Source: a virus
Strand: one strand, 5' to 3'
Virus record (IMG/VR): IMGVR_UViG_3300042387_001967
DNA: 64,000 nucleotides
How positions within the stretch are numbered: the stretch's first letter is position 1; every line of letters begins with the position of its first letter. Position numbers and translations under genes: made by a program. The notes beneath the pieces are model-generated. The model ran no database searches. It saw only the letters and a list, made by a program, of their open reading frames with translations, and was not told the DNA's origin. This document shows positions 26,573 through 61,062 of the stretch, one piece after another.

Positions 26573-27429
26573 GGGAGTGTGTCCGGCGTCCAGTGAGCAA
26601 TGCGGCGATATGCCTTGGTGTCGATGACCGGCAGCGGAAACTGGTATCGCTCGTCCGACTGATTCAGGTGCTCGAGCGTCGCGTCGTAAGCGACCGGCAG
26701 CACACTGCGGAAGCGATACGGCTTGATCTCGTCGCTGATCAAGTAACGCACGTCTGTCGTGGGATCCACGAGCATGTGCCCGCGGGCCGGATGCGGAAAT
26801 GCCATGAGCCGGGCAGAGACCCTGAGCGTGTCTGCCGGCGAGAATTCCTCCGGATCATCCTTCAGCCCCTCGCCGTGCGCCGTGATGCTCATCCACGTGA
26901 GCACCGGCCGGTAAAAGCCGCCCTGAAATGCCATGCCGTAGGAACGCAGCGCGGGGTCCTCGACCGCGCACTCGCCTCCCTCCTTCTTGCCGGTGTCCGG
27001 GTCTGTCGCCAAGGACGGCGTGCCGAACTCGCGCGGGATGCAGTGCCACACAGGGAACCCGTTCACGACTCTCATCTGCGTGAATTCCTGGTGGATCATG
27101 GCGCGGATGATGCCGTATTCGCGCCGCGTGATGTCGCCCATGATCTGGAACGGCTCGGACAAAAAATCGCCGACCGACGCGATCAGCAGCAGCCGGTAAA
27201 ATCCCTCGGCCGAGCCTTTGTTCATGAACAGCGTCGCGTCCTGATACACTCCCACGCCGGAGGCAACGGGCGCGTCCGGATTGAGTTCTTTCCATGTCCC
27301 CTGCGTGCCGGTGGTCGAGAACGCGGCATACACGTTCCCCGCGGGCGCGTCGGACGCCATCTCCCAGGTGATCGCAGCGTTACGCGTTCCGTGGTTCGGA
27401 TAAATGCGGACGTTGCGGAATACGCTCAT
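26569..27429 (-). CDS. Neck / head-closure protein
   Basis: 286 aa with an Ig-like N-terminus and 'SYGMAFQGGFYRP'. Function is inferred from synteny. Confidence 0.5.
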   Translation of the reverse strand: MSVFRNVRIYPNHGTRNAAITWEMASDAPAGNVYAAFSTTGTQGTWKELNPDAPVASGVGVYQDATLFMNKGSAEGFYRLLLIASVGDFLSEPFQIMGDITRREYGIIRAMIHQEFTQMRVVNGFPVWHCIPREFGTPSLATDPDTGKKEGGECAVEDPALRSYGMAFQGGFYRPVLTWMSITAHGEGLKDDPEEFSPADTLRVSARLMAFPHPARGHMLVDPTTDVRYLISDEIKPYRFRSVLPVAYDATLEHLNQSDERYQFPLPVIDTKAYRRIAHWTPDTLP

Positions 27430-28028
27430 TGCGACTTAGGCAAGCCGAGGCTGTCGATGTGTTGCGCGGCCTGTTCGTATGGGTCAGATGACGTCTGCGC
27501 TGCGGTCGCGGCAGGCGCCCCTGTCGGAGCTGGCTTCTCACCCTCTCCCGTTAGATAGCCGCCAGCCATACCTCCGAACCCGGCAGTCATACCGCCGGCA
27601 AGGAGTTTACCGCCTACCCCGGCTCGCTCCACGGCTTTTCCGGTTTGCATGGCTTTGATCACGCGGGGAGTTGCATTGGCCGCAAGACGAGAAGCTCCTC
27701 CGAAGAAGCCTTTGGCGGTTGACGCGACGCCTGGCAGAAACGACAGCGCCCCCCATCCGAGGTTGCTGACGCCCGACCAGAAGTTGCCGTTCGAAAAATC
27801 CTTGACCGCCTTGTAGCCGTAGTAAGGGACGCCGGTGACAGGATTCGAACCGGCGGCTATATCCAGCGCCAACTCGCCAGTGTCACCCCATGTCCACCCT
27901 TTGCTGGGTGCGCCCGGCGCGACGGGCTGCGGCGCGCGGCCAGGCTGATACATCGGCGCGAACGGAAACGGCTCCGTGTTTGCGGCTTTCACCATCGGAT
28001 CCAATAGAGCAAATGGCGTCGGTGTCAT
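27426..28028 (-). CDS. Putative internal head protein with TPFAxL-KxA leader and Gly-rich hydrophobic segments
   Basis: 200 aa from ATG 28028 (ATGA overlap): MTPTPFALLDPMVKAAN. Confidence 0.55.
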   Translation of the reverse strand: MTPTPFALLDPMVKAANTEPFPFAPMYQPGRAPQPVAPGAPSKGWTWGDTGELALDIAAGSNPVTGVPYYGYKAVKDFSNGNFWSGVSNLGWGALSFLPGVASTAKGFFGGASRLAANATPRVIKAMQTGKAVERAGVGGKLLAGGMTAGFGGMAGGYLTGEGEKPAPTGAPAATAAQTSSDPYEQAAQHIDSLGLPKSQ

Positions 28029-28450: not shown

Positions 28451-29545
28451 TCAGTAGGTCGGGAAGAAGTCCCTGGTCAGTTGCTCACCGGAGCGCGGCG
28501 GGTGAGTTCGCCCGGTGGCGCCACCGCGCAGCAGCTTGGCTCTGTCTCGCGCCAGCCTGGAGTTTAACTCGTGACGTGCGAGACTTTCCTGGAGCGGCCC
28601 GATCCGGCGGTCCATTCCGCGCTGCACAGCGCCTGAATCGGCGAAAGGACCACGCCAATCACCTTCGCTCGCGGCCGCGGCCCACCGCCTCGGCGCGGCC
28701 CACCACGCCGTGCGTTGGTTCTCCAGATCCGCCTTACGCTTGGCGATCTGATCCATCATGCTTCGGCTGTGATCCTCCTGCATGTCCAGGCGGTCCACGG
28801 TCTTGTTGAATTTTTTATCGTAACCTTCGTGAGACCGCTCAAGTTCCTTCAAGTCGTAGTAGTCGTTTGAGCCGGCCCGGATCGTTCCTCCGTCGAGCGC
28901 CTCGCGCAGTTTTGCCATGCGAGCGACAGAACTGTCGCGATTCTTGTTCATGTCGAAAATGCTAGGCTCGTGCTCGCCAAGGCGGTTCGCATACATCTTC
29001 TCGTATTCGCTCGAGCTGAGACCGCCGGGGGGCAGGAACGAGTCTGCGCCATATCCGCCATATCCGCCCGTCAGCATGTCGTCCTTGTTCCACCACTTGG
29101 TGCCTGCGTATGTGCCGCCAATACCTCCCGCGAGGAGGCCCATACCGCCGATGAACGGATGCTTGGTCAGGAACGAAGGTTTGACTTTTGACGGGCCGAC
29201 CGCCGCCGCAGTCGCCCGACCCACGCCGCTCAGGGCGCCCCAGCCGGCTGTGGCGGCTGCCCGTGGCGCATCCCAAAGCACCGCTTTACCCAGGCGTCCC
29301 AGACCGCCCCAAAATGGACCTGCCGCCTTCTCCATATCCGCGTGCGGAATCAGCATCGCACGCATCTGCCCGGGGAACGAGGCAACCTTCGCCAGATATC
29401 CGACGGCGAATGCAGGCCGGGCATCTAGCTCCTGGTCGAGCGACTCGCGCTGCAACAGCTGCGCGGCGGCCTCCTTGCTTAGTCCGTTCTCGAAGCAAGT
29501 CGTCAAAAATGCAGTAACAAATCGCTGAGTCATGGGCTCTCTCAT
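28451..29545 (-). CDS. Putative internal head protein (KxA motifs, Gly zipper, coiled coil)
   Basis: 364 aa with SKEAAA and EKAAG. Confidence 0.55.
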   Translation of the reverse strand: MREPMTQRFVTAFLTTCFENGLSKEAAAQLLQRESLDQELDARPAFAVGYLAKVASFPGQMRAMLIPHADMEKAAGPFWGGLGRLGKAVLWDAPRAAATAGWGALSGVGRATAAAVGPSKVKPSFLTKHPFIGGMGLLAGGIGGTYAGTKWWNKDDMLTGGYGGYGADSFLPPGGLSSSEYEKMYANRLGEHEPSIFDMNKNRDSSVARMAKLREALDGGTIRAGSNDYYDLKELERSHEGYDKKFNKTVDRLDMQEDHSRSMMDQIAKRKADLENQRTAWWAAPRRWAAAASEGDWRGPFADSGAVQRGMDRRIGPLQESLARHELNSRLARDRAKLLRGGATGRTHPPRSGEQLTRDFFPTY

Positions 29546-29661: not shown

Positions 29662-30630
29662 TTACGCGATGCCAGTCATCGTGTAGGTCAGCTTCTGCAC
29701 GCCGAGGGTGTTGCCGATCGTGAGACCGACCTGCTCCTGGGCACGCATGCGGATGATGTCGTACTCCTTCTTGATGGTGACGGTGATGTCTTCGAGCATC
29801 AGCGCGTTGCCAAGGAATTCCTTGGGCGCGAACTGATACATGACGCCGTTTGCGACGAGTCCGTTCTTGATGGTGCTGACGAACGGGACGCCGAACATCT
29901 CGAACTTCTCGAGGGCCTTGAGACCCTTGCGGGCCACGTCCTGCGACAAGTCGCCGCCCATCTCCAAACGCTCCCAACCGAGAAACTCGTTGGCAGTGCG
30001 TTGATTGACGAGGACGACACCGATCGGCAGCTGGCGCTCAATGAGGTAGCTGACGGCGCGCTTCAGGCCCTTGCGGGAGAAGGTAGCGCTGGTCATCGTG
30101 ACGTTCTGGTAGGCGCCCGGAGAGGCACTTTCCACCGTCGCGTAGGCCGTGGCACCACCCACGATGCGGTCGATCTCCGTAAGGAACGAAGTGTCTTCCG
30201 CCGTGTGGATGTCACGCAGCATGTTGTCGTTGACGATCTGCCGAAGGTCCGTCTTGTAGGTCCGGAGCTGGTTGATGTTCTTCGTCGCTTCCTCGGTCGT
30301 GATCACCGACAGGAGCACCACATACTTCTCCGCGCGATACGAGAAGGAGTTCGGGGTGTCGTTGTAGGGGATGACGCGAGCAGGCGGCGAGTCCGGTTCG
30401 AGTTCGTACCAAACTCCGGGGAGTTCCGAGTCCCCGAAATAATCGAGGTCCTCGTTGGTAATCATGTCGAATGACAGAATCGCGCGCTGGAAGCCCTCCT
30501 CCCGGATTTGTGTCCGGGTGGCCTTCGAGGTCGCGGTGGATGCTTTCTTCACAACGCCGTCGTCCGATGAGAGGACGTCGTCGATGAGTTGCTTCTTGAT
30601 GAGCAGGTCTTTTGCAGCTTGTTCGTTCAT
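29662..30630 (-). CDS. Major capsid protein (HK97-like)
   Basis: 322 aa, 'TKNINQLRTYKTDLRQIVNDNMLRDIHTAED' backbone helix. Strong terminator follows; decoration, scaffold and protease genes precede. Confidence 0.72.
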   Translation of the reverse strand: MNEQAAKDLLIKKQLIDDVLSSDDGVVKKASTATSKATRTQIREEGFQRAILSFDMITNEDLDYFGDSELPGVWYELEPDSPPARVIPYNDTPNSFSYRAEKYVVLLSVITTEEATKNINQLRTYKTDLRQIVNDNMLRDIHTAEDTSFLTEIDRIVGGATAYATVESASPGAYQNVTMTSATFSRKGLKRAVSYLIERQLPIGVVLVNQRTANEFLGWERLEMGGDLSQDVARKGLKALEKFEMFGVPFVSTIKNGLVANGVMYQFAPKEFLGNALMLEDITVTIKKEYDIIRMRAQEQVGLTIGNTLGVQKLTYTMTGIA

Positions 30631-31261: not shown

Positions 31262-31675
31262 TTAGCCAAGACCAGCCTCAGTGCAGCACCGTTCCCAAAG
31301 GTCGGTTCTGCTTTCGGATGATCCGGCTTCAGTCCGGGTTGCGGCTGGCTTATCGACCAGGTCCCCGTCCTTGCCGAACAAGTCGACGTAGAGCGGAAAC
31401 ACGGCCCTGGAGGCCAGCTTCTCCAGAAACTCGAGCAGTTCAGCAGGGCCGGCCTGCTCGAGAGATTTTGCGAGGTCCTTTCCAGTGTTGTCCTGGAAGG
31501 CGCCTGTCTTCATGAGTTCCTTGGCGACTGCAGCGCAGCGAACGGACGCCACTTTCACCAGGGTCACTGGCTCGGGGCGGCGGTGCGCGAGTTCTGCAGA
31601 TTTCACGGCTGTTTCAGCGAGGTCGATGGCATCATCGATCACACTGAGCATCTCCGTGAACGCCTTGTTGTTCAT
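31262..31675 (-). CDS. Small head-associated protein
   Basis: 137 aa helical protein with VKSA, VKVAS and EKLAS. Confidence 0.5.
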   Translation of the reverse strand: MNNKAFTEMLSVIDDAIDLAETAVKSAELAHRRPEPVTLVKVASVRCAAVAKELMKTGAFQDNTGKDLAKSLEQAGPAELLEFLEKLASRAVFPLYVDLFGKDGDLVDKPAATRTEAGSSESRTDLWERCCTEAGLG

Positions 31676-31699: not shown

Positions 31700-32821
31700 T
31701 TAGACTGCTGCTTCCTCCGGCATGCCTTCGGGCGCGGCACCTTCGCCGCCGGACGTCGCTTGAACAGCTTCGAGGATGTCCTCCTCGGTGATCTGACCGC
31801 TGGCGAGCATTTCCTGCAGCAGCGCCATGATCTCTTCCTCGCTGAGGGATTCGCCGCCCATCGGCAATGCTTCGTCGGCTGGCGAGGCGCCATCGGCTGG
31901 CGGCTCAGCACCTTCCGGGGCTCCGGCTTCGTCGGCCGCGGCCATGAGCGCCGCATCGTCCATGCCCTGCGCGTAGGCTGCCTTGAGCAGCGGATGATCG
32001 AGTGACGCGAGCGTCTCCTGATGCAGCGCGGCCTGCTTGATGATGGCGTCCGCGTGCGCCTCGGTCACGCCAGCTTCCAGCAGGCTCTCATGAATTTCGT
32101 GCACCTTGCGTCCGAGATCGTCGTAAGCGGCCTGCTTGATCTGTTCACCCTCGCCGAAGACGTGCGAGGCGTCGATGGCCTCGAGAATCTGCGCGCGGGC
32201 TGCGTCCTCGCCTGCCTGCTTCTCTAGGAGGTCATGCGCCATGCGGATGCCCTCGTCAGTGCTCACGAACACGCGGGCGATTTTGCACAGCACTTCCGTG
32301 CTGAGGTCCAGCGTGGAAGCCCCGGTGCCGGCCTGCTTCTCAGTCTGCCGTGCGGGCTGTCTTGCGGGAGCGGACGCAGCGAAGCGCTGAGCGAGCGCGG
32401 GATTCGACTGCACCAGCGCTGCGCGGATACTCGCGGCGCGTTTGGAAAGGTTTGCGGCTTTCAGCGTCGTGCCGTCTGCGGGCTGGTCCGCCTTCAACTC
32501 CGCTTCACCCGGATCCTTGGGAATGCTGGCCTTGCTCGCGGTGATACCGCCCTGGCCGTCGGCGACGGTCATACGATCGGGTCTGCCGGCCGGAACCTGG
32601 GCCCCTTTGCGCGCCGTGCCGTCTGCCGGCTGCAGGCGCTTCAGTTCAGCTTCGCCGACATCCTTGGGAATGCTGGCCTTGCTCGCGGTGATACCGCCCT
32701 GGCCGTCGGCGACGGTCATACGGTCTGGTGCGCCTTCTCCGGCTGCGGATTTCTCGGCTGCGATCTTTTCCGCATACTGGCGAAGCGCGGCAGCCACTCG
32801 GTGTTGATTGGGTTTGGACAT
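31700..32821 (-). CDS. Scaffold-like protein
   Basis: Likely start MSKPNQ at 32821. Many KxA motifs, acidic C-terminus, lies between protease and MCP. Confidence 0.55.
   Translation of the reverse strand: MSKPNQHRVAAALRQYAEKIAAEKSAAGEGAPDRMTVADGQGGITASKASIPKDVGEAELKRLQPADGTARKGAQVPAGRPDRMTVADGQGGITASKASIPKDPGEAELKADQPADGTTLKAANLSKRAASIRAALVQSNPALAQRFAASAPARQPARQTEKQAGTGASTLDLSTEVLCKIARVFVSTDEGIRMAHDLLEKQAGEDAARAQILEAIDASHVFGEGEQIKQAAYDDLGRKVHEIHESLLEAGVTEAHADAIIKQAALHQETLASLDHPLLKAAYAQGMDDAALMAAADEAGAPEGAEPPADGASPADEALPMGGESLSEEEIMALLQEMLASGQITEEDILEAVQATSGGEGAAPEGMPEEAAV
32513..32722. repeat. 63-bp identical direct repeat with a 147-bp (49-aa) period
   Basis: atccttgggaatgctggccttgctcgcggtgataccgccctggccgtcggcgacggtcatacg at 32513 and 32660. 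Confidence 0.9.
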
Positions 32822-32910: not shown

Positions 32911-34377
32911 TTATGCGCGACGAATCATCAAACTCGCGGCGAGCCCTCGAAACAGTGTGCCGGCGTTGACGTCCGGCAGGTCTTTGATCTGGTGTGCGGC
33001 TTTCACTAAGTAGTGTCCGTAAGCTTCTATCAGACCGCCGTAGTAGTCGTCGATATTTTTTTTGAGGCCCGGACGCGCAGCGATGCTGCCGCTCTTGATG
33101 ATCACCACGCGCATCGCACGATCAGACGCCTGACCTGTGCCCATTCCAAGGTCGCCGCCAACCTCGTCCATGAGACGATCGATGTTGTCCTTGCCGGGCG
33201 AGAAGGAGCAGCCTGTTTCGTCCGGCGCCACAGCGTCAGCGACATCCTCGCCGCACGCGCAGCCGCCGCTGTGCATCATCCCCGCCAGCAGCGAAGGCAG
33301 CTTGATTTCAGCAGCGTCGCACAGTGCCGCGTTCTTCTCGATGTCGGCTATCTTCTGTCCGGTCACGAGCGAAGCGAACGTGTAAAAATTGATGACCATG
33401 GCGCGCTTGGCCAGCTCGCCTCCGGCGTTGCGGAAGTCCACCTCGGCCAGTGTGTCTATCTGGTCGGCTGAAAGATCTTGCGGCGCCAGCTTGCACAGCA
33501 CTTCCCGCGTCACCGCGTCAGCACGCTTCACGAATTCATCAGCCGCGGCGAGCTTCTGCAGTGTGAGATTTTCCCACTCGCTGAACGGCACGACGCGCGC
33601 ATTGCCGAACTGAAACGCGGCCCATTGTGCGCCGGTAATGATCGCGTCGCCCGACGCAGCCTTCGCCATCTCGCCCTCCGGAAATGTGTAGCTCAGGAAA
33701 GTGGCGATGCGGTCAGCGCGTCGTTTGACTTCGCTGATGTCGAAGAACTTCACGTCGTCCTCGTTGCGGGCGTAGGCATACTTCTCAAACCCATCCACGA
33801 ACCGCAGCATGTTGTTCTTCAGATGGCTGCAGTAGTCCGTTGTGCGCTTGCTCTTTTTCTTGCAGCACGAGCACTCGTCATGCGGGAGGCGCATGGACAT
33901 CGACCAAGACAGCTCCTCGCCGGCCTTCGCCTTCTTATACATGTCCGGCGCCTTGTCCTTTTCCACCCAGGCGATCAACTCGCCGCGGTGCATCTTCGGA
34001 TTCACCCGGGCCAGTCGGACGGTGCCGATGCCCTGAGTCACGGGGTTGCGATTTTTGTGTTCGCGGAATACGCATCCAAATTTTTCGAACGTGCCGTGGT
34101 GACGGTCCAGCGATCGCCGGCTGGCTGAGTCGCCGTTGCGGTTCGGCCCAAAAGTTTCTTCCTCGCCCATCGTGATCAGATGCACGCCAAACTGATCATC
34201 CGGAGGCATGTGCTCCTGCAGATCCAGGCGCGAGATGACGTCCGATGCCGACTTCGTAAATCCACTGCGGCCCCGGTCGCGCTCGAAGAATGTGAAAGCC
34301 TTGCCGTCAGCCGCCCGCAGCAGCTCCGCGTGGTCGTCCGTGGCGAATGATTTTTCGAGTTCGCGTTCGATGTGCAT
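32911..34377 (-). CDS. Prohead (capsid maturation) protease, HK97/assemblin-fold type
   Basis: PNRNGD, FREHKN (His), SWSMSM (Ser), a CSCC...YCSH zinc site and FFDISEV...ADRIA. Lies upstream of scaffold and MCP. Confidence 0.7.
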   Translation of the reverse strand: MHIERELEKSFATDDHAELLRAADGKAFTFFERDRGRSGFTKSASDVISRLDLQEHMPPDDQFGVHLITMGEEETFGPNRNGDSASRRSLDRHHGTFEKFGCVFREHKNRNPVTQGIGTVRLARVNPKMHRGELIAWVEKDKAPDMYKKAKAGEELSWSMSMRLPHDECSCCKKKSKRTTDYCSHLKNNMLRFVDGFEKYAYARNEDDVKFFDISEVKRRADRIATFLSYTFPEGEMAKAASGDAIITGAQWAAFQFGNARVVPFSEWENLTLQKLAAADEFVKRADAVTREVLCKLAPQDLSADQIDTLAEVDFRNAGGELAKRAMVINFYTFASLVTGQKIADIEKNAALCDAAEIKLPSLLAGMMHSGGCACGEDVADAVAPDETGCSFSPGKDNIDRLMDEVGGDLGMGTGQASDRAMRVVIIKSGSIAARPGLKKNIDDYYGGLIEAYGHYLVKAAHQIKDLPDVNAGTLFRGLAASLMIRRA

Positions 34378-35196: not shown

Positions 35197-36765
35197 TTAC
35201 GCTCGCTTGTTGCTGTCGGAACGCACCAGCGACAGCGGACCGGCGCCGCCGACAGTGTAGCGCGATTTCTCGTTGATGTCGGAAAGTTCGTCCGCCTGTT
35301 CGCTGTTGCGGCGGATTTCAGAAAGCAGCTTCTGCGAGTCCAAGGTGAGCCCTTCGTAACTCACTGCCTCGCGCAGGATCAAGCGCAAAGCAGCCATGTC
35401 GCCCGCGAGTTGCGGGTTCCTGGCGGTGACCGAGTTGTAGATCTCCAGCACGACTTTCGGGTCCGCTTCCTTCAGCACGGGATCTGTGCCGATCAGTCGG
35501 CGAATGGCCATTGCGCGCTTGATGTCCTCCACGGACACATCAGCGGAAATCTGCGCCTTGTTCAGCCGCGGCTTGGACGTGATGCCGGTGATCACTCCTT
35601 CGGCTTTGTCCGCGGCAGCCTGCGTTGCTCCGGCTACTGCGGCGACTGGCTTTCCGAGCAGATCCATCAGGCTGATGGACTCCTGCTTGTTCTCGGGATC
35701 GCTGGTGCTGCGCTTGTCTCCAGTCGACTTGTCGCCGCCGCCGCCCACGGGCGGTCCGCTGGCGCGCGGCGGACCACCAGATCCAGCGGCGGGCTGTGCT
35801 GTTGTCGAGATCGAATCGACATTATCCAGCGACTTCTGCGCGTCGTCCACCTTGGCCTTGTCCGCCTTCTCAGGTTTAGGGACGTTGAATATATCGCTGA
35901 CGTCTGCATCATTGTCCACCTGGTGGACCTCGACCGCGGTGCCGTCGCTGGCCTTGGCGGCCATCTTGATCAGCACTTCCAGCGTGCTGGCGGCCTTCGC
36001 CAGTTCTGCAAATTTCTGCCCGAGCGCGTGTCCGATGTCGTAGGCCCGCTGCGGCACGCGGACGTCATAAGCAAACCGCAGCAGCTTCGTGCGATGCGGC
36101 GCTGCGAACTTCTCCATGAACGCGCCGGCCGCTTTGACCGCGGCGGGCGGCTGATACTGCAGCGCCTCTTGTTCGAACTCGGAAATGTCGCGCTGGAAAT
36201 GCCAGTCGCCAACACGCGGCGCCGCTGTAAAAATCTCACTGGCGAGTTTGGACATCTCGTCTTCGAGATCAACTTCGAGCGTCAGCAGCGCATCCTGCAA
36301 CTGCTCGCGCGACACCGCCTGCTTGAATGTTTCGTGCACCTTCGCCGGCTGGTCAGTCACCTGCGCGGCTGCCTTTTCCAGATTCGCCTCACGCCTCATT
36401 GCGGCGGCCAAGTCGACGGTGCGCGGATCGTGCGTCGAAAAAGAATGCGGACCGGCCGCTGCCTTCTCGTGATTGAGTCCGGTGGCGTAGCCGACCACAA
36501 GCGTCGGAACATCCACCAGCGGCACCGTCTGACCGCGCGCGTCGTCCGCAGCGTGATCGATGTAACTGACGGTGCGGAGAGTGTTGTAAACCTGGGCGAG
36601 CTTCTCGAGCTGCGCAGGCGGCAGATCCTCGCGAGCGGCATACTCTGTGAGGACAACCTCGGCCCCGCGCTTCTCGATGTCGGGCACGAGATTCACCACG
36701 GTTCGAACAGCGGAATCATGCGTCATGCTGTAACCATATCCGTTCTCTTGCTGCGTGTCCATCAC
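35197..36765 (-). CDS. Head-associated protein with multiple KxA motifs
   Basis: 522 aa with EKAAAG, EKAAAQ, AKAAS and AKAS. Confidence 0.55.
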   Translation of the reverse strand: MMDTQQENGYGYSMTHDSAVRTVVNLVPDIEKRGAEVVLTEYAAREDLPPAQLEKLAQVYNTLRTVSYIDHAADDARGQTVPLVDVPTLVVGYATGLNHEKAAAGPHSFSTHDPRTVDLAAAMRREANLEKAAAQVTDQPAKVHETFKQAVSREQLQDALLTLEVDLEDEMSKLASEIFTAAPRVGDWHFQRDISEFEQEALQYQPPAAVKAAGAFMEKFAAPHRTKLLRFAYDVRVPQRAYDIGHALGQKFAELAKAASTLEVLIKMAAKASDGTAVEVHQVDNDADVSDIFNVPKPEKADKAKVDDAQKSLDNVDSISTTAQPAAGSGGPPRASGPPVGGGGDKSTGDKRSTSDPENKQESISLMDLLGKPVAAVAGATQAAADKAEGVITGITSKPRLNKAQISADVSVEDIKRAMAIRRLIGTDPVLKEADPKVVLEIYNSVTARNPQLAGDMAALRLILREAVSYEGLTLDSQKLLSEIRRNSEQADELSDINEKSRYTVGGAGPLSLVRSDSNKRA

Positions 36766-53400: not shown

Positions 53401-54007
53401 GCGCCTTGAATCCAAGCACCGCCTTCTTGTGCATCTGGCGGCGGGCCTGTGCCTCCTCGTTGTCCAGTGCGCTCACAATCCCTGACATCGACACGCCCAG
53501 GAGCGGGTGCAGTCCGGACGCGGCGAGATGAAACGCGTCGCCCGCTTCGGCGATCGAACTGTAGCCCTTGTATTTGCGGTCCCGCATCGTCTCGTAGGCG
53601 TTGACCGCGCCGAGCCGGTTGCTGCCGCCGAACCAGCCCGGGTTGTCCAGCAGCGCCTTGTCGTCCAGCTCGCGCAGCCGCTTGCGCTTCTCCGTGTCGT
53701 AGGACTTCTGGATGCTCCGCAGCTCCAGGTGTCGCAGCAACTGCACGATCGCGAGCGGGCCGAGCATTGCCGCGGCGCGCACCGGTTTGGACTGGTCTGC
53801 CGTGTAGGCCCCGCCGACGGCACCGAGGCCCATGGCCAGCAGCTGCGTGACCCGAGGATTGTCGACAAGCACCGAGGGATCGCGACCCACCCGCGCAGCC
53901 ATCACCTGGGCTGCGCCGGCACGACGGGCCCCCGAAGGCATCAGCGGAATAAAGTCCGCGAGCAACGGGCCGATTCCTGTTCCTAGCGATTCGGGAGTTT
54001 GCGACAC
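50426..54007 (-). CDS. Polyvalent protein with three HExxH zincin modules
   Basis: Likely GTG start at 54007, supported by a leaderless promoter. HEGGH 53069-53083, HEAGH 52334-52348, HEVNH 51419-51433, with KxA motifs between modules. Confidence 0.65.
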   Translation of the reverse strand: MSQTPESLGTGIGPLLADFIPLMPSGARRAGAAQVMAARVGRDPSVLVDNPRVTQLLAMGLGAVGGAYTADQSKPVRAAAMLGPLAIVQLLRHLELRSIQKSYDTEKRKRLRELDDKALLDNPGWFGGSNRLGAVNAYETMRDRKYKGYSSIAEAGDAFHLAASGLHPLLGVSMSGIVSALDNEEAQARRQMHKKAVLGFKALTGHTGPIKAFLRQLRNEGAAVRRVIPETVGARLPNTGAKLPVGTSGYSRGSWDPTQQAFRDTVLDVGKGRPRNTMTMQPDAGAFRFTYGQGTPGGTNPSPIASLLHEGGHHMNHRAMRRAGIGDSMGGHEVPGLPHMDKVMNELGANNSALQFLQQAGARPEAMAYFKGARAPSFSSYVRNLPQTGNPVQQRILAAGPHGFTPGYKGLPDLYKQAEFAEQRNSPVIPLTIAAALLGSLGRSASQNWAVREVSNTPPLGVDKWPGTIASISGTEPLMLASNADGTANAFFYKPNTEKEGLQFMRQFSGLRDVTPRTPTTKGEYGRTMEKLQRLMRSGVMVANERAGAPVIGHEAGHAKIEETPGMLRFLQRHIYPHQGWVAPMAAAGSMAAGLASGSTLKGGLYGTGIGLLSSLGTVGPEAGASYHALRHLKGLGDGSLSAEGKKDLLSALSTYLAGGVLPSVLSGMAGGWISGRRRQKDEEEGVEKSAAYVPVENAFEKAATAWQEMHKAGTVGMLEPVRRPRTVTGKIPMNWNAKPRPTAPGKPPGAEVNLMDSKSTVNPADFKTPYYGDQFPAQLEQAAQYNLKNKLPNTTDGWQRPVTVVTSNPTSNSQYAPFVQQGIHGSAVFMPADAGKFLRDESPEMAAAGAKPADVLAHEVNHAAGDNWAVGEHDDAYFVGPAKDPGYVERQNFMDKLPHDLKPGEHRGYMSTIQAQQFKDTGSRITSPEAYDKWLESMNVHHADPAVFENSIKSVPVDAQRMLRGMRDPAADPAYLKSLKQWQRRVIPGIVQQAAPVQEKFAKQASAKRLQSIAQALENIRNVRKSGVGGAESFAAAFDSTPEVLRRYFFKHPDVMRLGIKSRMPSQKIQDMLKGLVTPPAIPALPPPPPPAAPIQGMLDLFKQGQAHPALPALRAAKEHSDAGDYSMKHKLIRQNMRRHAEDWSIDSDDGKGIVGVTHIPTGFRLHMPKGVVDPDVLRYHNAAQMPHNRNR

Positions 54008-54042: not shown

Positions 54043-54063
54043 CCACGTAAAGAAGAGCGACCA

Positions 54064-54092: not shown

Positions 54093-54108
54093 GCGCGGCG
54101 GAAGCGGC

Positions 54109-54618: not shown

Positions 54619-54652
54619 GTGGTAATTGTAGGCCGATGCTCGGCGTTGGAAA
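54619..54652 (-). promoter_or_regulatory. Sigma70-like leaderless promoter TTTCCA-16-TACAAT-6-ATG
   Basis: -10 at 54625-54630, -35 at 54647-54652, ATG at 54618. Confidence 0.55.
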
Positions 54653-54667
54653 CATAAAATGAGGGTT

Positions 54668-54701
54668 GCAGCGGGGCCGATGTCACCACCGGCCCCGCTG
54701 C
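54668..54701 (-). terminator. 12-bp GC hairpin (terminator-like)
   Basis: GCAGCGGGGCCG, 10-nt loop, CGGCCCCGCTGC right after the stop at 54707. Confidence 0.5.
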
Positions 54702-54706
54702 GTTGA

Positions 54707-55330: not shown

Positions 55331-55369
55331 AATTTCTTATGACGCACCACGCCTCGGAATTGCACCGGA

Positions 55370-58300
55370 TCAGCCGAAACGGCTCGCCGCTTGTCCCGTC
55401 TGGCTCGGCGCAGCAGGAAGTGGCGTCGCGGCTGACCCAGCTGGGTCAGCAGGAAGTGGCGTCGCGGCTGACCCAGCTGGCGCTGCGGGTTTGTCGTAGC
55501 CGCCCATCCATTTTTTGGCGTAGTGACCAACCAGCGGCATCGCAGCAGCCATCAGATAGGTAGGCAGACCCGCGAAAGATTTCAGCGCCGGGAGGCGCTT
55601 ACTGCCGAGCGCGCGAAGACTCTTGTATCCGCGACGACCAGCGTCCAGCTCACTCGCCAGTGTCGCACCACCGAAAGCAGTGCCTGCCAGCGCGATGTTG
55701 CGCCCAGTTGTCTCGTCCTTCGCAAACAGCCCTGCCTGTCCCAGTCCCAGCATTCCGCGCGCGCCGATTAAGTTGGCACGAAATAGCGCGCGCCCACCTT
55801 GTGCGTGCCCGAGCTCATGCGCCAGCGCACCCGGGCGCATCATTCGTTCGGACAGGCCAATTTGTGGTCTGCCGTTTGGTTCGTGGTAAAATGCCTCTGG
55901 CGCCGCTGGCTTAAAGAAATTCGCCGCGGAATAACGAGGCTGTTCGACACGCCCCAGCCTGACTCCGCTGCTGACGGCTTGATTGGACAGACGATTAAAA
56001 ATTTTCTGCTCCGCCCGTGTGTTCTCCGCTCCGTGAATCCACGGCGCTACGCGCGTCGCGTAGGCGAGGCTCGCCGCAGCCGCTGGCACCTGCACCATCG
56101 AACCGCCGAGTAATCCCCAACGCCAATCCAGTCCCTCGTTGTCCCCCTTCAGAAACTCGCCGACTGCCGCCGCCTTCACCATCTGCCCCGCAAACGGCTT
56201 CTTGTGGTCCCCGTCCTTCAGCCACTCCTTGAACTGCGCAAAGGTGCACGTGCTCGCCGGCATCTCCGGCCATCCCCGCTGGTAGTTGCTGCGATACAAC
56301 CGGACACCCTCGTCCTGGCTGTCGCACCCGAGTAAAAATTTCGACTCGTCGTATTTACCCCCGAGATGCTGATCGATCACGACCACCAGCTCGCTCGCCT
56401 TGTTGGGACCGACGAACACGTCGAGGTGATCCCCGTCGATGGCTTTCGGTCGCACGCGCTCGCCCGACTTCCCGCCGGCCGCGGAGCGAATGTATCCGTA
56501 GGGGCACGTCAGCACCGACTCCCATTTTTTACCTTCCTTGGTGGTGCCACGGCGAATGCTGCCTTTCTCGTTCTCGATCGTGATGTCGATACCATGGAAG
56601 TCCACGTGGCCCATCTTGAAATTTTGAGACTCGATTTGAGCCTGGCTGGGATTCGGGCGCGCGTGGTCGATCCGACGATACCGGGCCAGCTTCTCGAACG
56701 GTGTGATTGCGGCGATGGCCGCAGACTTGAGCATACTCCCCGGACGTTGAAATGGCACCGCATAATTCGCCGCCGCATGTGCCCGCGCAGACAATACGCG
56801 ACCAAGCAACCCGTTCGACATGCCAGGATACTGCTGCCGCAGAAAGTCACGCGTCGCCGTCAATCCTTCGCGATCTTTTTCCAGCATGTAGGCAATCGGT
56901 AACCTCTTAGCCTGCATACCGCCGAGCGAAGCAGGCAACCCCGTAGCTCTCAGATGTCCAACCAGTTCTCCAGGGACTTCATCCAACGAGCCAATTACCG
57001 GGCCCATAGTAGGACTCAACATGGCCGACAGGCGCCGGCGAAGATAGTTTGAAAACTGCGGCTCCAGATTTTCTTTTTGATGCCCCAGCTCGTGCGCGAG
57101 AACTCCCATGATTCCAGGTCTCGCCGGCGCTCCAGGGTCTATGGCTCCTCCGCTTACGACCACGCGGGCGCGGGGTCCGGCGACCCTGTAAGACACCCGA
57201 CCGCGATGGATGCGCCGCGGTCCAAGTCCTTCAAAATAAGAATGCGCAGAGTCGAAATTGCCGCGGCTTGCCCACCCTCCACTCTGGTCGTATTTCCGGG
57301 ACGCCAGCAGCTTGATCTTCGGCGGTAAAAGCTGCACATCTCGCAGATCTTTTGTCGACTTGTTTGCTACGCGCAGCAGAGGATGTGGCGGCGTTCCTTG
57401 CAGCTTAAACCGAAGCTCTTGCAAGGGCGCGACGCCTGCCGTCTCCTGCAGCTTAAACAACTGCGCAGGAGAAATTCCGATTCCTGGTTCGTATTTCCGC
57501 GCCCCATTGTAAAGTCTCCACAGTCCCGGCGCTTGCGGACTGAACGCATCCTGCATCACTGGGGACAGATTCTGATGCACAGCCGCACGCAGGTTGTGCG
57601 AAGTCTGCACAACCGAAGGCAGAGCAAGTTCGGGCATTCCGAGTCTTTGTAGCGAGTCCTTGCCGAGCTTTCCGGCGCGCAGCAGATCAGTCAGACGGTT
57701 GGCCGACTTCGTCCTCGGCGGTCCGTAACGCTCGCAGACCTCGCACATCTCGACGTCTGGTAACGGCTCGCCCTTGGGCAATTCATTGCCGCATCCTGGG
57801 CATTTGGCTGCTGCGCTTTTGGTCCTCACCGAATCGGCGATGTCGTCTGCCCATTTATCCACGGTATCGTAGCGGGCGTCGAATCCTGGTAGAGCCGCAA
57901 TCTCACTGTCGAGGCTGGCGGCGGACTTCTCCTGTGTCAGTTTGTCCGCCGTTCGCTTCCCCGTGCGGACGGCATCCAGTCCTGCCAGGCCGGCGACGCC
58001 CAGGGCTCCGAGGCCGAATGCTGCTCTGAATGCGCCGTTGGCCTTCAAATTCTTCAGTATCTCAGGACTGCGACCGCGGATCAGCGCCCACAAACTGGGT
58101 GTGCCTTTGTAAACACGACGACTGGGAATCGTCCAATCCACGGAAAAATTATGTATGTCCGGTTTGTTCCAGGCTCCAGGCCGTGACGTTATTACATCCG
58201 GGACTGCGCGCCGTAACTCGTCGGGTGTCAGCGTAGTTGACAAAACGACACCTTGACTTCCGGGAGTAGCATGAGCCGCTGATTCTGCGTAGCTCTTCGC

Positions 58301-59143
58301 CTCTGTCTTCCCCCCAAAAAATCCTTTTGAGAGAAATGTCTTCGGTGTTGATAGGTTTTGCTTAATCTTTTCCAGTCTCGTCAGCTCTTCCGCCACGTCG
58401 CGCTGAATAAGGTTTTCAGGGACGCCGTTTCTCTTTGAGGCATCCTGAAGCCTGCCGATTTCTTCAGCCTTCAAAGCGACCCACTTGTCTACGTTGTTGT
58501 GCGGCTTTAGACCGTCCCGTATGATGCCAGGCAGATGTTCGGTCGACGTGCCGTGATACATCTCCGATGGATTCAACAGTGTGCGCGCCGCGCCCTTCAA
58601 AGCCTTGTAGCCGACGAACGAGTCTGCGCCGATGCGCAGCGGATTGACGACGCCCTCAGATACGGAGAGACCATCGTGTTCCGCAGCGGACTGCTTCTCC
58701 ATAGACGCTATTTTTTCCGCAAGCGTCGCCGCGCCGCGCACAGCTGCGGTTCCCAGTGTTCCGACCGCCTGGCGGACATCTGGGTTGAGCAAGCCGCGCA
58801 TCATGTCCGTTACAAACTGCCGGCGGTCCACGGGTCTATTGCTCATGCCTTTGACCGCCGCCTCGCGGGAACGCATCTGCAGCAGACGCAGCGGGTCGTG
58901 CGCCTTCGCTGCGTGATCGACTTTGGACGCCACGCCCATCACGCCAAGGGCCGGCGCGAGCACTGGGGCGGCCACTGCCTTGCCAATATTTTCAACGGCG
59001 CTTCGGCGCCCCATCGCGACAGGATTGGTTAGGGCATGCTCGACTTTGCCCAGGCCGACGCCGCGCAGAGAGCGCATAGTGCGCAGAAGATCGCCCACCG
59101 CCAAAAATACGTTGGCCGACTTGGTATGCGCCGTTTTGTTCAC
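55370..59143 (-). CDS. Polyvalent protein: ART-like + Zn finger + zincin + InPase-like + membrane zincin
   Basis: Likely GTG start at 59143 (GTGA overlap; MNKTAHTKSAN). MYHGT..GL.P (about 58130-58565), CPGC..CEVC, HELGH 57080-57094, InPase-like 'SQAQIESQNFKMGH..YGYI..DGDHLDVFVG..DESKF..Y..GW' (about 56190-56660), HELGH 55805-55819. Confidence 0.72.
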   Translation of the reverse strand: MNKTAHTKSANVFLAVGDLLRTMRSLRGVGLGKVEHALTNPVAMGRRSAVENIGKAVAAPVLAPALGVMGVASKVDHAAKAHDPLRLLQMRSREAAVKGMSNRPVDRRQFVTDMMRGLLNPDVRQAVGTLGTAAVRGAATLAEKIASMEKQSAAEHDGLSVSEGVVNPLRIGADSFVGYKALKGAARTLLNPSEMYHGTSTEHLPGIIRDGLKPHNNVDKWVALKAEEIGRLQDASKRNGVPENLIQRDVAEELTRLEKIKQNLSTPKTFLSKGFFGGKTEAKSYAESAAHATPGSQGVVLSTTLTPDELRRAVPDVITSRPGAWNKPDIHNFSVDWTIPSRRVYKGTPSLWALIRGRSPEILKNLKANGAFRAAFGLGALGVAGLAGLDAVRTGKRTADKLTQEKSAASLDSEIAALPGFDARYDTVDKWADDIADSVRTKSAAAKCPGCGNELPKGEPLPDVEMCEVCERYGPPRTKSANRLTDLLRAGKLGKDSLQRLGMPELALPSVVQTSHNLRAAVHQNLSPVMQDAFSPQAPGLWRLYNGARKYEPGIGISPAQLFKLQETAGVAPLQELRFKLQGTPPHPLLRVANKSTKDLRDVQLLPPKIKLLASRKYDQSGGWASRGNFDSAHSYFEGLGPRRIHRGRVSYRVAGPRARVVVSGGAIDPGAPARPGIMGVLAHELGHQKENLEPQFSNYLRRRLSAMLSPTMGPVIGSLDEVPGELVGHLRATGLPASLGGMQAKRLPIAYMLEKDREGLTATRDFLRQQYPGMSNGLLGRVLSARAHAAANYAVPFQRPGSMLKSAAIAAITPFEKLARYRRIDHARPNPSQAQIESQNFKMGHVDFHGIDITIENEKGSIRRGTTKEGKKWESVLTCPYGYIRSAAGGKSGERVRPKAIDGDHLDVFVGPNKASELVVVIDQHLGGKYDESKFLLGCDSQDEGVRLYRSNYQRGWPEMPASTCTFAQFKEWLKDGDHKKPFAGQMVKAAAVGEFLKGDNEGLDWRWGLLGGSMVQVPAAAASLAYATRVAPWIHGAENTRAEQKIFNRLSNQAVSSGVRLGRVEQPRYSAANFFKPAAPEAFYHEPNGRPQIGLSERMMRPGALAHELGHAQGGRALFRANLIGARGMLGLGQAGLFAKDETTGRNIALAGTAFGGATLASELDAGRRGYKSLRALGSKRLPALKSFAGLPTYLMAAAMPLVGHYAKKWMGGYDKPAAPAGSAATPLPADPAGSAATPLPAAPSQTGQAASRFG
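55411..55480. repeat. 34-bp tandem direct repeat (period 36) with a 20-bp palindrome at the junction
   Basis: cagcaggaagtggcgtcgcggctgacccagctgg twice; gctgacccagctgggtcagc at 55431-55450. Confidence 0.85.
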
Positions 59144-61062
59144 AGTCCGTAAAAACGATTCAGGACTTCTTGTGCAGCCTCCAGGTGCGACGGCAGCGCA
59201 TTCTTCGACCATTTTCCATGTCCAGCCGCGACGGCGCGAGTGTGTGCAAGATTCTCACGGATCAGATTGCCCTGCGCGTCCACCATGTTCACATGTTTTC
59301 CTAGCCACGACGCATCGTTCGAGGCGCCTGGAATCGCCGGAGCGACCGGCAACCGGGCGGCAAGACGCGGGTCGGACGCGTGCAGGCGTCTGACAGCCGT
59401 CGCTGCGTTGGCTGGTGCGTGCACCTTACTGAACGGCACCCAGCGACCCGCTGATTCGGCGCCGCTGCCAGTGCCGCTGGACACATACATCGGCTGCTTC
59501 ATGACATCCACGTTGGCTTTGTCGTATATCGCTTTGCCGCTCGGGTCATACCCGGTGCGGTAGCGCTGCCGCATTACCATCGGGGACATCTGACGCCCGC
59601 CAGCGGTTCCCACGTCGTCGACCCCAGCTTGAAAGTAATCGACCAAACCGACGCCGTGCTGCTTGGCACCGGGCAGCCTGGCTTCGGCAGACCCCATGTA
59701 GCGCAGGTTCGGATTGCGACGCGTGACGTCATCCACGCTGTTGATCATCCCAAGCCCTCGGCGCCCGATGAGGCGGCTGTTCGTCGCAAGCGCATCCTCG
59801 ACGGCGCCTACGAACTGGTTTGGGATACCGTGGTTCTTGGGAAGTCTGGATGTCGCGCGCGCCAAACCAGCCCCGGCAGCTCGCAGGCCACTGCCTGCAG
59901 CCCGCAGAAGGGCGGTCGCGGACTTCTCCATCGGCGCCGCGATTCCGCCGAGCCGTTCGATCGTGCTGCCGGACTTGAACATCAACGCGGGATCCGGTCC
60001 GAGGATACGATCGGCACGGCGCGACATCAGTTCCCGGAGAGCCTCCGGGTTCTCAGCATGCATGCGCATCATGCGAGGATTCCGCCTGATCGAGTCCGTC
60101 CACGGCGTCGTGTTCAGTCCCGATACCTGCTCGAACTGTGTTGCAGCCGGACCGCCCTGCGTCCACCGCACCGACTGAGCTGTCTGGTTCCTGTAGTTCT
60201 GCGCGGCGCGTGAGGCGCGACCGGCAGGGAAGTATCCGTGCTGCTTGGACAGCCAAAGCGGTTCACGATCGAAGCCGGACGCACGCAACTCGGTACCGAG
60301 AAACGGATTGTGCCGCGGCATGACAGTCGTCTCCGCATTACCGAGCATCTGCGAGTAGTTTTGACTGGCGTTGCGCGCGCGGTTGCGGGCAGTCCCTGTG
60401 ACCGCTTCCTCGGGACCCCAGGGTCTCCAGACCTTCTGTCCTGGCGCCGACCCGTAGTGGTGGATCGCCTCCATCGTGTTGGCGGAATACAGCGGCGACC
60501 GCGCTAACCGCTTCTCGGGCTCCAGAAACGGCGTGTGCAGCCGCCCATACAAGCTCGCTGTTGCTTTGTCAGGCGCTGCGTAATGGAACGCGCCGCCAAA
60601 AGATCCACCTCCCCAGGGGTCGCCGCCGACGGTGCCGCGAAAGAGTCGCCCATCCGCTGCAGGCACCGGCTGCCCGTGGCGCCGGAACAGCTTTTCGTGT
60701 GTGGACGGCACGTGCATACGGTCGAGCTCTGCCAGCCAGGCACTGTCGCCCTGTGCCTTGAACGGAGCGAGGCGAGTCTGCTTCGCGTCTGCTGCGATGT
60801 TGGCCACCCGCCTACTGATCAAATCCCGGCCCGGCTCGCGCAGCGTGGTACCCACGGCTTGCTTGAGCGCGGACAGATTCGTCCAATGCGGCTTAGCTTC
60901 AATTCCCATGCGTCCGAGAAGCTCAGGCAAATGACTCAGCATCCGCCATTTCTTCTGCGCCTCCTTCTCCATCTCAGGCGACGCACCGAACACCCGCAAA
61001 TCTCGCGGCATCGCCTGCGCGAGCGCTGTGCTGTAAGCGTGTGAGTTTCGTGTCAGTCCCAT
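59140..61062 (-). CDS. KxA polyprotein with an ADP-ribosyltransferase-like module
   Basis: Likely start ATG 61062. EKEAQ, 'RLFRGT...FHYAAPDKATASLY', FKSG, EKSAT, then a second unknown module. Confidence 0.55.
   Translation of the reverse strand: MGLTRNSHAYSTALAQAMPRDLRVFGASPEMEKEAQKKWRMLSHLPELLGRMGIEAKPHWTNLSALKQAVGTTLREPGRDLISRRVANIAADAKQTRLAPFKAQGDSAWLAELDRMHVPSTHEKLFRRHGQPVPAADGRLFRGTVGGDPWGGGSFGGAFHYAAPDKATASLYGRLHTPFLEPEKRLARSPLYSANTMEAIHHYGSAPGQKVWRPWGPEEAVTGTARNRARNASQNYSQMLGNAETTVMPRHNPFLGTELRASGFDREPLWLSKQHGYFPAGRASRAAQNYRNQTAQSVRWTQGGPAATQFEQVSGLNTTPWTDSIRRNPRMMRMHAENPEALRELMSRRADRILGPDPALMFKSGSTIERLGGIAAPMEKSATALLRAAGSGLRAAGAGLARATSRLPKNHGIPNQFVGAVEDALATNSRLIGRRGLGMINSVDDVTRRNPNLRYMGSAEARLPGAKQHGVGLVDYFQAGVDDVGTAGGRQMSPMVMRQRYRTGYDPSGKAIYDKANVDVMKQPMYVSSGTGSGAESAGRWVPFSKVHAPANAATAVRRLHASDPRLAARLPVAPAIPGASNDASWLGKHVNMVDAQGNLIRENLAHTRAVAAGHGKWSKNALPSHLEAAQEVLNRFYGL

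Follow-up and report, generated by a model that had tools for sequence, protein, structure and literature searches.

A short tag, K-x-A, marks the head proteins of an uncultured phage of 184 kb; judged from sequence, it is most likely where a T4-like (gp21-fold) capsid protease cuts. We consider it rather probable that K-x-A serves as the cut code of this prohead protease for the head proteins and also releases modules from two large mosaic proteins, which would subsequently be ejected. The window, i.e. the whole stretch of 64,000 nucleotides analysed here, represents the structural half of the phage genome. The lineage is large and almost wholly metagenomic; the only cultured relatives that we found are Salmonella phage Arash and the Vibrio phages D69, D148 and D181, and a description of the K-x-A code of this lineage was not found in the published literature.

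Based on per-protein shuffles, K.A[ASG] occurs 54 times in the head block compared to 19.4 ± 4.2 expected copies (z 8.2), while the downstream tail-side structural block is at chance level (6 vs 8.7 expected), which confirms the enrichment proposed in the original prediction; the remainder of the genome harbors 61 copies vs 42 expected. If a preceding hydrophobic residue is included ([LIVMF].K.A[ASG]), the head block shows 36 copies vs 4.7 expected (z 13.8). Six control motifs (A.K, [ASG]A.K, R.A[ASG], K.G[ASG], KA.[ASG] and K..A[ASG]) were flat in shuffles of the window. An unbiased scan of 1600 gapped dipeptides placed K.A at the top for the core head proteins (66 vs 34.3 expected), with L.K and EK also among the top five, and revealed no comparable signal in the tail-side set; K.A was not among the top-enriched dipeptides of the large proteins as a set, where two proteins account for the signal. 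A motif weight matrix trained on relatives alone identified, at a counting threshold of ≥ 10 bits, 24 sites in the core head proteins (1.1 expected), 6 in the large proteins (0.7 expected) and 1 on the tail side (1.2 expected). The fuller consensus reads [L/M/I/F]-[E/x]-K-x-A-[S/A/G], in which the position two residues before the lysine is the only enriched hydrophobic one, glutamate directly precedes the lysine in about 30% of the sites and glycine is accepted after the alanine. However, the claim that nearly every head-block protein carries the motif was overstated, since the strict motif of the original prediction is found in 10 and K.A[ASG] in 14 of the 23 head-block ORFs, and 9 of the 23 have none. 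The sequences quoted as examples are all present at the places given (including MSKQAS, MNKTAHTKSAN, WKQAAS and VVKKAS), but KTAH, KSAN, KKAV, KQAE, KAAT and K-Q-S-A deviate from the pattern as it had been defined.

The K-x-A enrichment was repeated in all seven relatives examined (GC content 42–64%), with z values of 7.3–11.4 for head proteins and about 0 for downstream genes, and was seen both in the relative with 42% GC and in Arash. In addition, motif lysines are more conserved than other lysines of the same alignments (0.69 vs 0.38, p 2.5e-7). These results support the conclusion that selection maintains the motif throughout the lineage and that it is restricted to head-module proteins.

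The candidate enzyme and the sites flanking its core are the following.

32911..34377, (-) strand: prohead (head maturation) protease, 488 aa (phrog_18299 head maturation protease, E 1.6e-4)
34243..34254, (-) strand: protease site K42-S-A-S, N-terminal flank of the core, K.A[ASG] in 115/115 homologues
33652..33663, (-) strand: protease site K239-A-A-S, C-terminal flank of the core, motif in 115/115 homologues

The AF2 model of the protease (pLDDT 72; core blocks 76–90) matches T4 gp21 (5jbl; Foldseek E 4.6e-4; VIA Z 13.0, rmsd 2.6, 147 residues), followed by herpesvirus proteases with Z 5–6.4. Its layout comprises a gp21-like core at residues ~46–238, a Cys-x2-Cys...Cys-x-His insertion and a helical C-terminal region. 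We identified 346 metagenomic homologues; in 115 homologues, H66, H107, S157, S159 and S161 show no or almost no variation. The fold and the location of the gene in the head module agree with the earlier assignment, and we regard the gene product as a predicted prohead protease of the gp21/assemblin fold. In the model, the sites at residues 42, 239 and ~428 are located in coil or low-confidence linkers: K42 in a coil between strand 28–31 and helix 50–55, and K239, which like A241 is invariant in the 115 homologues, within the linker 220–259. Some conserved copies are located in confident helices, e.g. K275 in helix 267–284, which an extended-substrate protease would not cut unless they unfold. 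Since the gp21-like alignment covers residues 5–220, a cut at residue 42 would strip strands that the model places inside the fold.

The other head proteins and their putative sites are listed below.

28451..29545, (-) strand: 364-aa protein just downstream of the major capsid protein (MCP), sites K24 and K53 (11.6 bits each)
29662..30630, (-) strand: MCP, 322 aa (phrog_2522, E 4e-6)
30538..30549, (-) strand: MCP site K28-K-A-S (GVVKKAST), equivalent site in all seven relatives
31262..31675, (-) strand: 137-aa head protein, two high-scoring sites K41 and K86 (14.7 and 13.9 bits)
31700..32821, (-) strand: scaffold-like protein, 373 aa, 7–8 motif copies, directly downstream of the protease
35197..36762, (-) strand: 521-aa site-rich head protein, 7 copies at residues 100–266
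37727..40297, (-) strand: 856-aa head protein, 8 copies from K13 (WKQAAS) onwards, all in the first 370 residues
40315..40995, (-) strand: 226-aa protein, N-terminal leader TPFALLEKSAS (site at 40954-40965, 14.7 bits)
42093..43754, (-) strand: 553-aa protein, N-terminal TPFAKL...KSAG (K16) and KQAG (K31)
43803..45656, (-) strand: RNA polymerase beta'-like protein in the head module (phrog_25354, E 1e-36)

The gene order protease, scaffold-like protein, two small genes and MCP is kept in seven relatives. The MCP matches Arash gp226, the "major capsid protein" (tblastn E 3e-19), and the motif that had been noted near its residue 29 indeed lies at residue 28 (VVKKAS); it is located at residues 26–33 in all eight phages, with a lysine that is 100% conserved in the orthologue alignment. 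The motif lysines of the 137-aa protein (conservation 0.92) and the sites K24 and K53 of the 364-aa protein are conserved as well. In the 373-aa scaffold-like protein the sites are located at residues 19, 24, 127, 162, 201, 229 and 262, and its orthologues harbor 7–11 copies each (motif-lysine conservation 0.71); orthologues of the 521-aa protein harbor 5–8. The N-terminal Y-x-W-K-[QK]-A-A of the 856-aa protein is kept in six relatives. Products of the syntenic genes gp216–gp226 were detected by mass spectrometry of Arash virions, and gp218, syntenic with the 856-aa protein gene, was abundant with 1149 spectra (PMC10585845).

From the arrangement of these sites we propose that the gp21-fold protease reads a short linear motif, [L/M/I/F]-[E/x]-K-x-A usually followed by S/A/G, and probably cuts at or just past the motif alanine. 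Cuts on both flanks of its core would free the active protease, a cut at residue 28 would trim the MCP, the 7–8 sites per scaffold-like protein would allow the core to be digested and cleared, and in nine proteins short leaders would be removed at sites in the first 45 residues. This reading as a cleavage code is well supported by comparative evidence.

Alternatively, the motif could be a docking signal, i.e. a peptide that binds the protease, the scaffold or the inner capsid and thereby recruits proteins to the prohead while staying uncut. Short N-terminal tags can direct packaging, as known from the capsid-targeting sequences of T4, which provide a precedent; furthermore, several conserved copies lie in predicted helices of scaffold-like regions, and cuts at N-terminal copies at residues 3–6 would free merely a 5-residue peptide. 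We nevertheless regard docking as unlikely, because scaffold-like proteins carry up to 8–11 copies and the protease core is bracketed in 115/115 homologues, a pattern that corresponds to that of processed substrates in T4 and SPN3US (PMC10052503), and because glycine is tolerated after the alanine and sites are located in disordered linkers. Moreover, the RNA polymerase beta'-like protein (PF04998, 27.8 bits at a gathering cut-off of 28.5, E 2e-6) has no weight-matrix site, whereas its syntenic Arash counterpart gp216, annotated as RNA polymerase beta' subunit, is abundant in virions (PMC10585845), from which it follows that the motif is not needed for incorporation; this point also counts against the cleavage reading.

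The cleavage code would extend to two large proteins, whose homologues in relatives are found at the same place upstream of the head module; the small accessory genes surrounding these homologues have no hit.

55370..59143, (-) strand: mosaic polyvalent protein, 1257 aa (InPase PF18823, E 3.7e-35)
58703..58714, (-) strand: junction K144-I-A-S, then MEK-Q-SAA, end of the conserved N-terminal module
57917..57928, (-) strand: junction K406-S-A-A, end of the ART-like module (13.5 bits)
57809..57820, (-) strand: site K442-S-A-A before a Cys-rich segment (10.9 bits), conserved in homologue P0127
57698..57709, (-) strand: junction K479-S-A-N, start of the first HELGH module, HSP starts in homologues
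56717..56728, (-) strand: junction K806-S-A-A between HELGH module and InPase, HSP ends/starts at residues 809 and 811
56216..56644, (-) strand: InPase domain, residues 834–976 (Pfam PF18823)
56165..56176, (-) strand: junction K990-A-A-A (QMVKAAA), end of the InPase module (12.9 bits)
50426..54007, (-) strand: second mosaic protein, 1193 aa, three HExxH modules, GTG start at 54007
53417..53428, (-) strand: junction MHK-K-A-V, end of the conserved N-terminal module; its Ala is the exact endpoint of nine homologue HSPs
52751..52762, (-) strand: junction LYK-Q-A-E, end of the inserted cassette, six HSPs begin here
51932..51943, (-) strand: junction VEK-S-A-A (11.6 bits)
50987..51007, (-) strand: double junction QEK-F-A-K-Q-A-S before the C-terminal module (10.9 bits)

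HSPs between these proteins and their homologues show high identity, cover 13–57% of the query and contain permuted or alternative modules, which demonstrates mosaic domain shuffling and shows the modules to be distinct. The 1257-aa protein is composed of a conserved N-terminal module (residues 1–150), an ART/Tpt1-like lead, a Zn-ribbon-like segment, a HELGH module, InPase and a second HELGH module, and its homologues harbor the same modules permuted (P0122), in subsets or with extra cassettes. The module borders were defined by homologue breakpoints; the AlphaFold model of the large protein is too poor for mapping them (pLDDT 38.7). In line with the proposed position of the motif at module borders, these breakpoints fall on K.A in 7 of 12 clusters for the 1257-aa protein (8% expected, p 1.2e-5) and in 4 of 16 for the 1193-aa protein (5.5% expected, p 0.01), for which the modal endpoints 231 (nine times) and 449 (six times) lie exactly at Ala. 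At K144, HSP ends cluster at residues 150–159, and homologues read MEKSAA, MEKTAN or MEKRAG; at K406, HSPs of two homologues stop at residue 409. HSPs of two homologues begin at 479 with differing upstream context (SMEKTANR, GLEKTANR), and around K806 homologues vary upstream, while the sequence after KSAA is conserved. Five homologues stop 3–6 residues past QMVKAAS, where the 1257-aa protein runs on into another module. Its InPase region (residues ~826–1001) has tblastn matches to InPase modules of 459 phage records; the InPase modules of unrelated phages lack K-x-A flanks.

The GTG start of the 1193-aa protein agrees with homologue N-termini (M-P-x-D-P-E-S-L). At its MHKKAV junction an inserted HEGGH cassette begins; the homologues whose HSPs end there continue with the residues found after the LYKQAE site, and the cassette between both sites recurs, K-x flanked, in P0157. 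At VEKSAA, HSPs of three homologues end at 726/727 and diverge directly past K-x-A, and at QEKFAKQAS residue 1038 is an HSP end and 1039 an HSP start (both junctions numbered from the upstream TTG start, 54112). Regarding module identities, the InPase named in the original prediction stands and is the only large-protein module with a significant family match, but ART/Tpt1, Zn ribbon and zincin remain sub-threshold leads (Tpt1/ART, zinc ribbon, M48 and Zn_peptidase_2 matches; Atlas ART clusters score only 0.80). The 1193-aa protein has no Pfam match above threshold.

Both mosaic proteins thus resemble strings of exchangeable cassettes, each ending in hydrophobic-x-K-x-A, so that cleavage inside the prohead would split them into individual modules, which might then leave the capsid together with the DNA. 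We only tentatively extend this to a cassette grammar, which we judge somewhat likelier to fail than to hold, in which K-x-A is both the in-frame joint for swapping effector modules between phages and the point where they are cut free within the capsid; a module of any kind that ends in hydrophobic-x-K-x-A could plug into the conserved N-terminal delivery module and be delivered as a separate enzyme. If true, such cassette behaviour would explain how these phages renew their injected repertoire.

In an alternative that we regard as unlikely, the two large proteins would cut their own joints through their HExxH metallopeptidase modules, either within the capsid or once injected, with the prohead protease confined to the core head. 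Five such motifs are present (two HELGH in 55370-59143, three HExxH in 50426-54007), some junctions of the 1193-aa protein have E, V or K instead of S/A/G after the alanine, and E, V, K or N at P1' of some joints is unlike the core-protein consensus; furthermore, Iyer et al. 2017 proposed a cutting role for the MPTase domains of polyvalent proteins (PMC5512222). However, the HExxH modules lack a significant family match, and the non-prime side of the joint sites is the same as in the MCP, scaffold-like and protease sites, which points to the prohead protease and not to an embedded metallopeptidase as the processing enzyme. The motif is also present in relatives without detectable homologues of these modules, including Arash and the Vibrio phages, in which the zincin-like modules have no tblastn match, and a zincin is therefore improbable as the cutter.

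Very unlikely, in our view, is that the motif in the large proteins is only a flexible linker and recombination joint, offering microhomology for in-frame exchange in proteins that remain uncut. Breakpoints do fall inside the four-residue motif, and the virion RNA polymerase of bacteriophage N4 is a precedent for packaging without processing (PMC5512222), but twelve bases of degenerate codons provide poor microhomology, and the conservation of the motif on both sides of the protease core and in core proteins that are not mosaic would be left unexplained. Finally, the idea that the pattern simply follows from a helical composition rich in Lys and Ala in a GC-rich genome, conceivable given 12.5% Ala and 5% Lys in the head proteins, is rejected as extremely improbable by the excess over per-protein shuffles, the six flat register and composition controls, the first rank of K.A among 1600 patterns and the enrichment in relatives including Arash and the one with 42% GC.

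The prohead protease gp21 of T4 recognizes the motif (L/I)-x-E and processes internal proteins and capsid-targeting leaders, and phiKZ gp175 and SPN3US gp245 recognize A/S/G-x-E and process ejection proteins in a head that contains a virion RNA polymerase. All of these short-code enzymes, to our knowledge, cut after glutamate, and a gp21-fold enzyme reading Lys-x-Ala would, if true, represent a new specificity. Both codes were ruled out here, since the enriched motif has a fixed Lys and Ala, with Glu only before the Lys and none at the cut position. The system resembles T4 in the protease fold (Z 13.0), in the location of the gene beside scaffold-like genes and the MCP, and in its logic, i.e. 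many core or scaffold sites, a short N-terminal MCP trim, sites around the protease and cargo leaders. It differs from T4 in the 488-aa protease with its Cys-x2-Cys...Cys-x-His insertion and long helical C-terminal region, and in a cargo that includes mosaic multi-module proteins. Like phiKZ and SPN3US, the phage is large and its head module encodes RNA polymerase-like subunits, but the cleavage code is another, the MCP is far smaller (322 aa) and no sequence relation is detectable past the protease fold. Multiple motif copies per protein are also reminiscent of the SPN3US propeptides, which hold several copies (PMC10052503), although SPN3US cuts nearly all remove N-terminal propeptides and do not separate modules. 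Herpesvirus assemblin, with (V/L/I)-x-A↓S sites, has a related fold (Z ~6) and likewise a small residue, such as Ser, after the Ala. Its substrate consensus was ruled out as well, since Lys by definition stands two before Ala, where the consensus has a hydrophobic residue, which here is found two positions further back.

Polyvalent proteins (Iyer et al. 2017, PMC5512222) resemble the mosaic proteins in having InPase and HExxH modules and an ART-like lead, in the extensive shuffling of their domains and in the late or virion context of their genes, but the joints here additionally share a conserved short motif with the capsid, scaffold-like and protease proteins of the phage. How polyvalent proteins are split into functional parts has been a matter of proposal since 2017, and a joint tag identical to the capsid and scaffold-like tag would offer the prohead protease as a specific answer, testable in the cultivable Arash. 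If true, the packaged proteome of a large, nearly uncultured lineage would become predictable from sequence alone.

Two further large proteins had been included as processed precursors.

59140..60972, (-) strand: 610-aa protein, not supported as a substrate
47892..50429, (-) strand: 845-aa protein, weak member, sole good copy N-terminal M-S-K-Q-A-S (50412-50423)

The first has neither K.A[ASG] nor a matrix site of ≥ 8 bits, and its proposed processing is dropped. For the second, which has no other good site, the proposal holds for the N-terminal tag and not beyond; comparable N-termini, M-N-K-T-A-S and M-Q-K-T-A-A, are found in large proteins of the relatives.

The analysed stretch corresponds, in reverse complement, to bases 4365-68364 of one contig of 184,016 bp with a GC content of about 62%. 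Its minus strand holds almost all genes, including the following:

29662-30630, minus strand: major capsid protein (MCP; phrog_2522, E 4e-6; tblastn to gp226, the annotated major capsid protein of Salmonella phage Arash, E 3e-19)
32911-34377, minus strand: head maturation protease (PHROGs match)
43803-45656, minus strand: RNA polymerase beta'-like gene

Upstream of these genes are several very large ORFs; an InPase domain was detected in one of these ORFs (E 3.7e-35). When 8 kb from the head module was compared with 50,697 phage records by megablast, zero matches were returned, and an IMG/VR scan with the protease as query gave no confirmed match. At the protein level, the only cultured relatives are phage Arash and the Vibrio phages D69, D148 and D181, to which the MCP is about 28% identical; the protease has 346 metagenomic homologues, and the gene order is common to the six contigs sampled around such homologues. 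Since a PHROGs search of the downstream block resulted in a weak baseplate-wedge match and nothing else, this block is referred to as the tail side mainly because of its synteny with the Arash annotation. A low-GC stretch at 4001-6000 (0.53 vs about 0.62) spans an LpxA-like acyltransferase gene (4730-5338).

According to the original prediction, nearly every head-block protein carries a K-x-A motif. All of the quoted motif strings were found in the sequence, several of them not matching the pattern stated along with them, and the extent was overstated, with the strict pattern occurring in 10 and K.A[ASG] in 14 of 23 ORFs. One proposed carrier, 59140-60972, lacks any site, and 47892-50429 contains the N-terminal M-S-K-Q-A-S and no other site. 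The composition count showed 54 K.A[ASG] sites in the head-block proteins, compared with 19.4 ± 4.2 in per-protein shuffles; the same procedure gave 6 (8.7 expected) downstream of the capsid gene and 61 (42 expected) in the rest of the genome. Requiring a hydrophobic residue two positions before the Lys resulted in 36 sites vs 4.7 expected, and six control motifs (reversed, register-shifted, Arg for Lys, Gly for Ala) were flat. In an unbiased count of 1600 gapped dipeptides in the core head proteins, K.A ranked first and the top five include L.K and EK, all three of which are pieces of the single consensus [L/M/I/F]-[E/x]-K-[S/Q/A/x]-A-[S/A/G]. A mere by-product of composition is excluded as an explanation of the motif.

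Arash and six metagenomic relatives show the enrichment as well, with z 7.3-11.4 for their head genes and z about 0 for the genes that follow these in the same seven relatives, and the pattern persists over a GC content of 42 to 64%. A weight matrix trained on these relatives only was applied to the window at a threshold of ≥10 bits. It identified 24 sites in the core head proteins, where 1.1 were expected; the observed and expected numbers were 6 and 0.7 for the large proteins and 1 and 1.2 for the tail side. In orthologue alignments, the conservation of Lys was 0.69 within the motif and 0.38 for other lysines (p 2.5e-7), and every capsid protein has one motif copy at residue 26-33. The observation behind the original prediction is confirmed, and the interpretation given there is partly supported.

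The AlphaFold model of the protease (pLDDT 72) matches T4 gp21 with Z 13.0 and an rmsd of 2.6 over 147 residues, well ahead of the next-best structural matches, herpesvirus proteases with Z about 6. Both flanks of the core, at residues 42-45 and 239-242, carry K.A[ASG] in 115 of 115 homologues, which are 33-98% identical, and additional copies near residues 275 and 428 occur in 83 and 88 of these, respectively. A pattern of this kind, with the motif on the flanks of the protease core as well as in the putative substrates, would be expected for a prohead protease that processes itself; it has been documented for SPN3US gp245, with A-x-E sites (PMC10052503). In the model, sites 42, 239 and 428 fall in coil or low-confidence linkers. 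Some conserved copies are located in confidently predicted helices, and cutting at residue 42 would take away strands that the model places within the fold. A less likely alternative is that the motif is an uncut docking tag. Within the gp21-like core, Cys169, Cys172 and Cys183 are invariant and His185 is nearly so (residues 169-185, window 33820-33873), a set that looks like a metal-binding insertion. Two protease homologues (P0057 and P0114, 834-852 aa) contain Hint/intein families, and the RNA polymerase beta'-like gene reaches about 990 aa in some relatives through a LAGLIDADG insertion (L007:1-1731, L009:20559-23525); the genes of the head module are therefore targets of inteins or homing endonucleases in this lineage.

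The evidence that adds most to the original prediction comes from the two large mosaic proteins. Homologues of 55370-59143 share segments with it that are 80-98% identical and span only 13-41% of its length; in one of them, three modules are identical in kind with their order changed, and others retain the first 150 residues as well as the InPase module, with different modules between them. Five homologues stop 3-6 residues past the site closing the InPase module, where 55370-59143 goes on into another module. For 7 of 12 clusters, segment ends lie at most 4 residues from a K.A site (8% expected, p 1.2e-5). In 50426-54007, the Ala of MHKKA is the exact end point of nine homologue segments, and LYKQA is the start of six. 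The two flanks adjoin directly in those homologues, and therefore 50426-54007 holds an inserted HExxH cassette with K-x-A at both ends, which was found again in another protein. Further joints of this protein are located at VEKSA and QEKFA (breakpoint clusters on K.A 4/16, p 0.01). The sequence preceding a joint tracks the upstream module, and that past the Ala tracks the downstream module. In two relatives, large homologues occupy the equivalent position; zero matrix matches were obtained for the small accessory genes beside large homologues in relatives. InPase modules of four unrelated phages are without K-x-A flanks. The idea that an intrinsic K-E-A-G once stood at the InPase N-terminus and was purged in this clade was rejected, as two unrelated lineages share Ile there. 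Of the module names proposed originally, InPase is backed by a significant family match, and ART/Tpt1, zinc ribbon and metallopeptidase are leads only. An AlphaFold model of large-protein residues 140-1257 from a 10-row mosaic alignment had a mean pLDDT of 38.7 and was unusable for domain borders.

We regard it as about an even bet that both mosaic proteins are cut within the prohead, at their joints; ejection of the cut modules would be a step drawn only from analogy. The cassette boundaries, together with the analogy to assemblin, favour a putative cut after the Ala, and the following residue at the 50426-54007 junctions is E, V or K. The motif at the joints could also, though less probably, be a linker and recombination joint and nothing more. 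A further possibility is that the joints of the large proteins are cut by the embedded HExxH modules, as proposed by Iyer et al. (PMC5512222), but Arash and the Vibrio phages carry the motif without a detectable homologue of these modules. Unlike this published view of polyvalent proteins, the sequence evidence presented here points to the capsid protease as the probable processing enzyme. This putative processing resembles the T4 gp21 and phiKZ/SPN3US systems in its way of working and differs from them in its code, which has a fixed Lys and Ala and no Glu at the presumed cut. Full-text literature searches for a K-x-A prohead motif found no publication describing it. The Arash virion comprises 116 listed proteins, the syntenic gene products gp216-gp226 among them, and the "coverage" given in Table 2 of that study (100% from two peptides) provides no basis for inferring missing propeptides (PMC10585845).

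Outside the window, other proteins of the genome have 2-4 high-scoring copies each, with 20 sites ≥10 bits vs 4.2 expected. Judged by their motif content, the following are candidates for further head cargo:

G000:C1:73001-74068: motif-rich protein
G000:C1:117448-118935: motif-rich protein
G000:C1:126512-128471: motif-rich protein
G000:C1:132197-134293: motif-rich protein

One such protein (698 aa) begins with M-I-K-V-A-A and has an N-terminal GNAT domain, the single match obtained with Pfam and PHROGs for these proteins. An element T-P-F-x-x-L precedes or overlaps K-x-A at the N-termini of 40315-40995 and 42093-43754 and is also found right behind the KSAA joint opening the InPase module (ITPFEKLA, window 56675-56716), where it is kept in homologues; it may represent a second, longer tag.

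The large mosaic genes (47892-61128) have a third-position GC content of 0.64-0.73 vs about 0.8 in typical genes of this phage, which would fit recent acquisition or frequent exchange. In the relatives, the surroundings of the large proteins form a variable island that includes AcrVA2-like, Sequestin, MYG1-exonuclease and GH16 genes, which suggests that a hot spot for anti-defence or host takeover lies upstream of the head module. The island genes are located at:

L008:7010-7924
L009:1932-2363
L009:5383-6312
L009:7088-8056
L009:14734-15483
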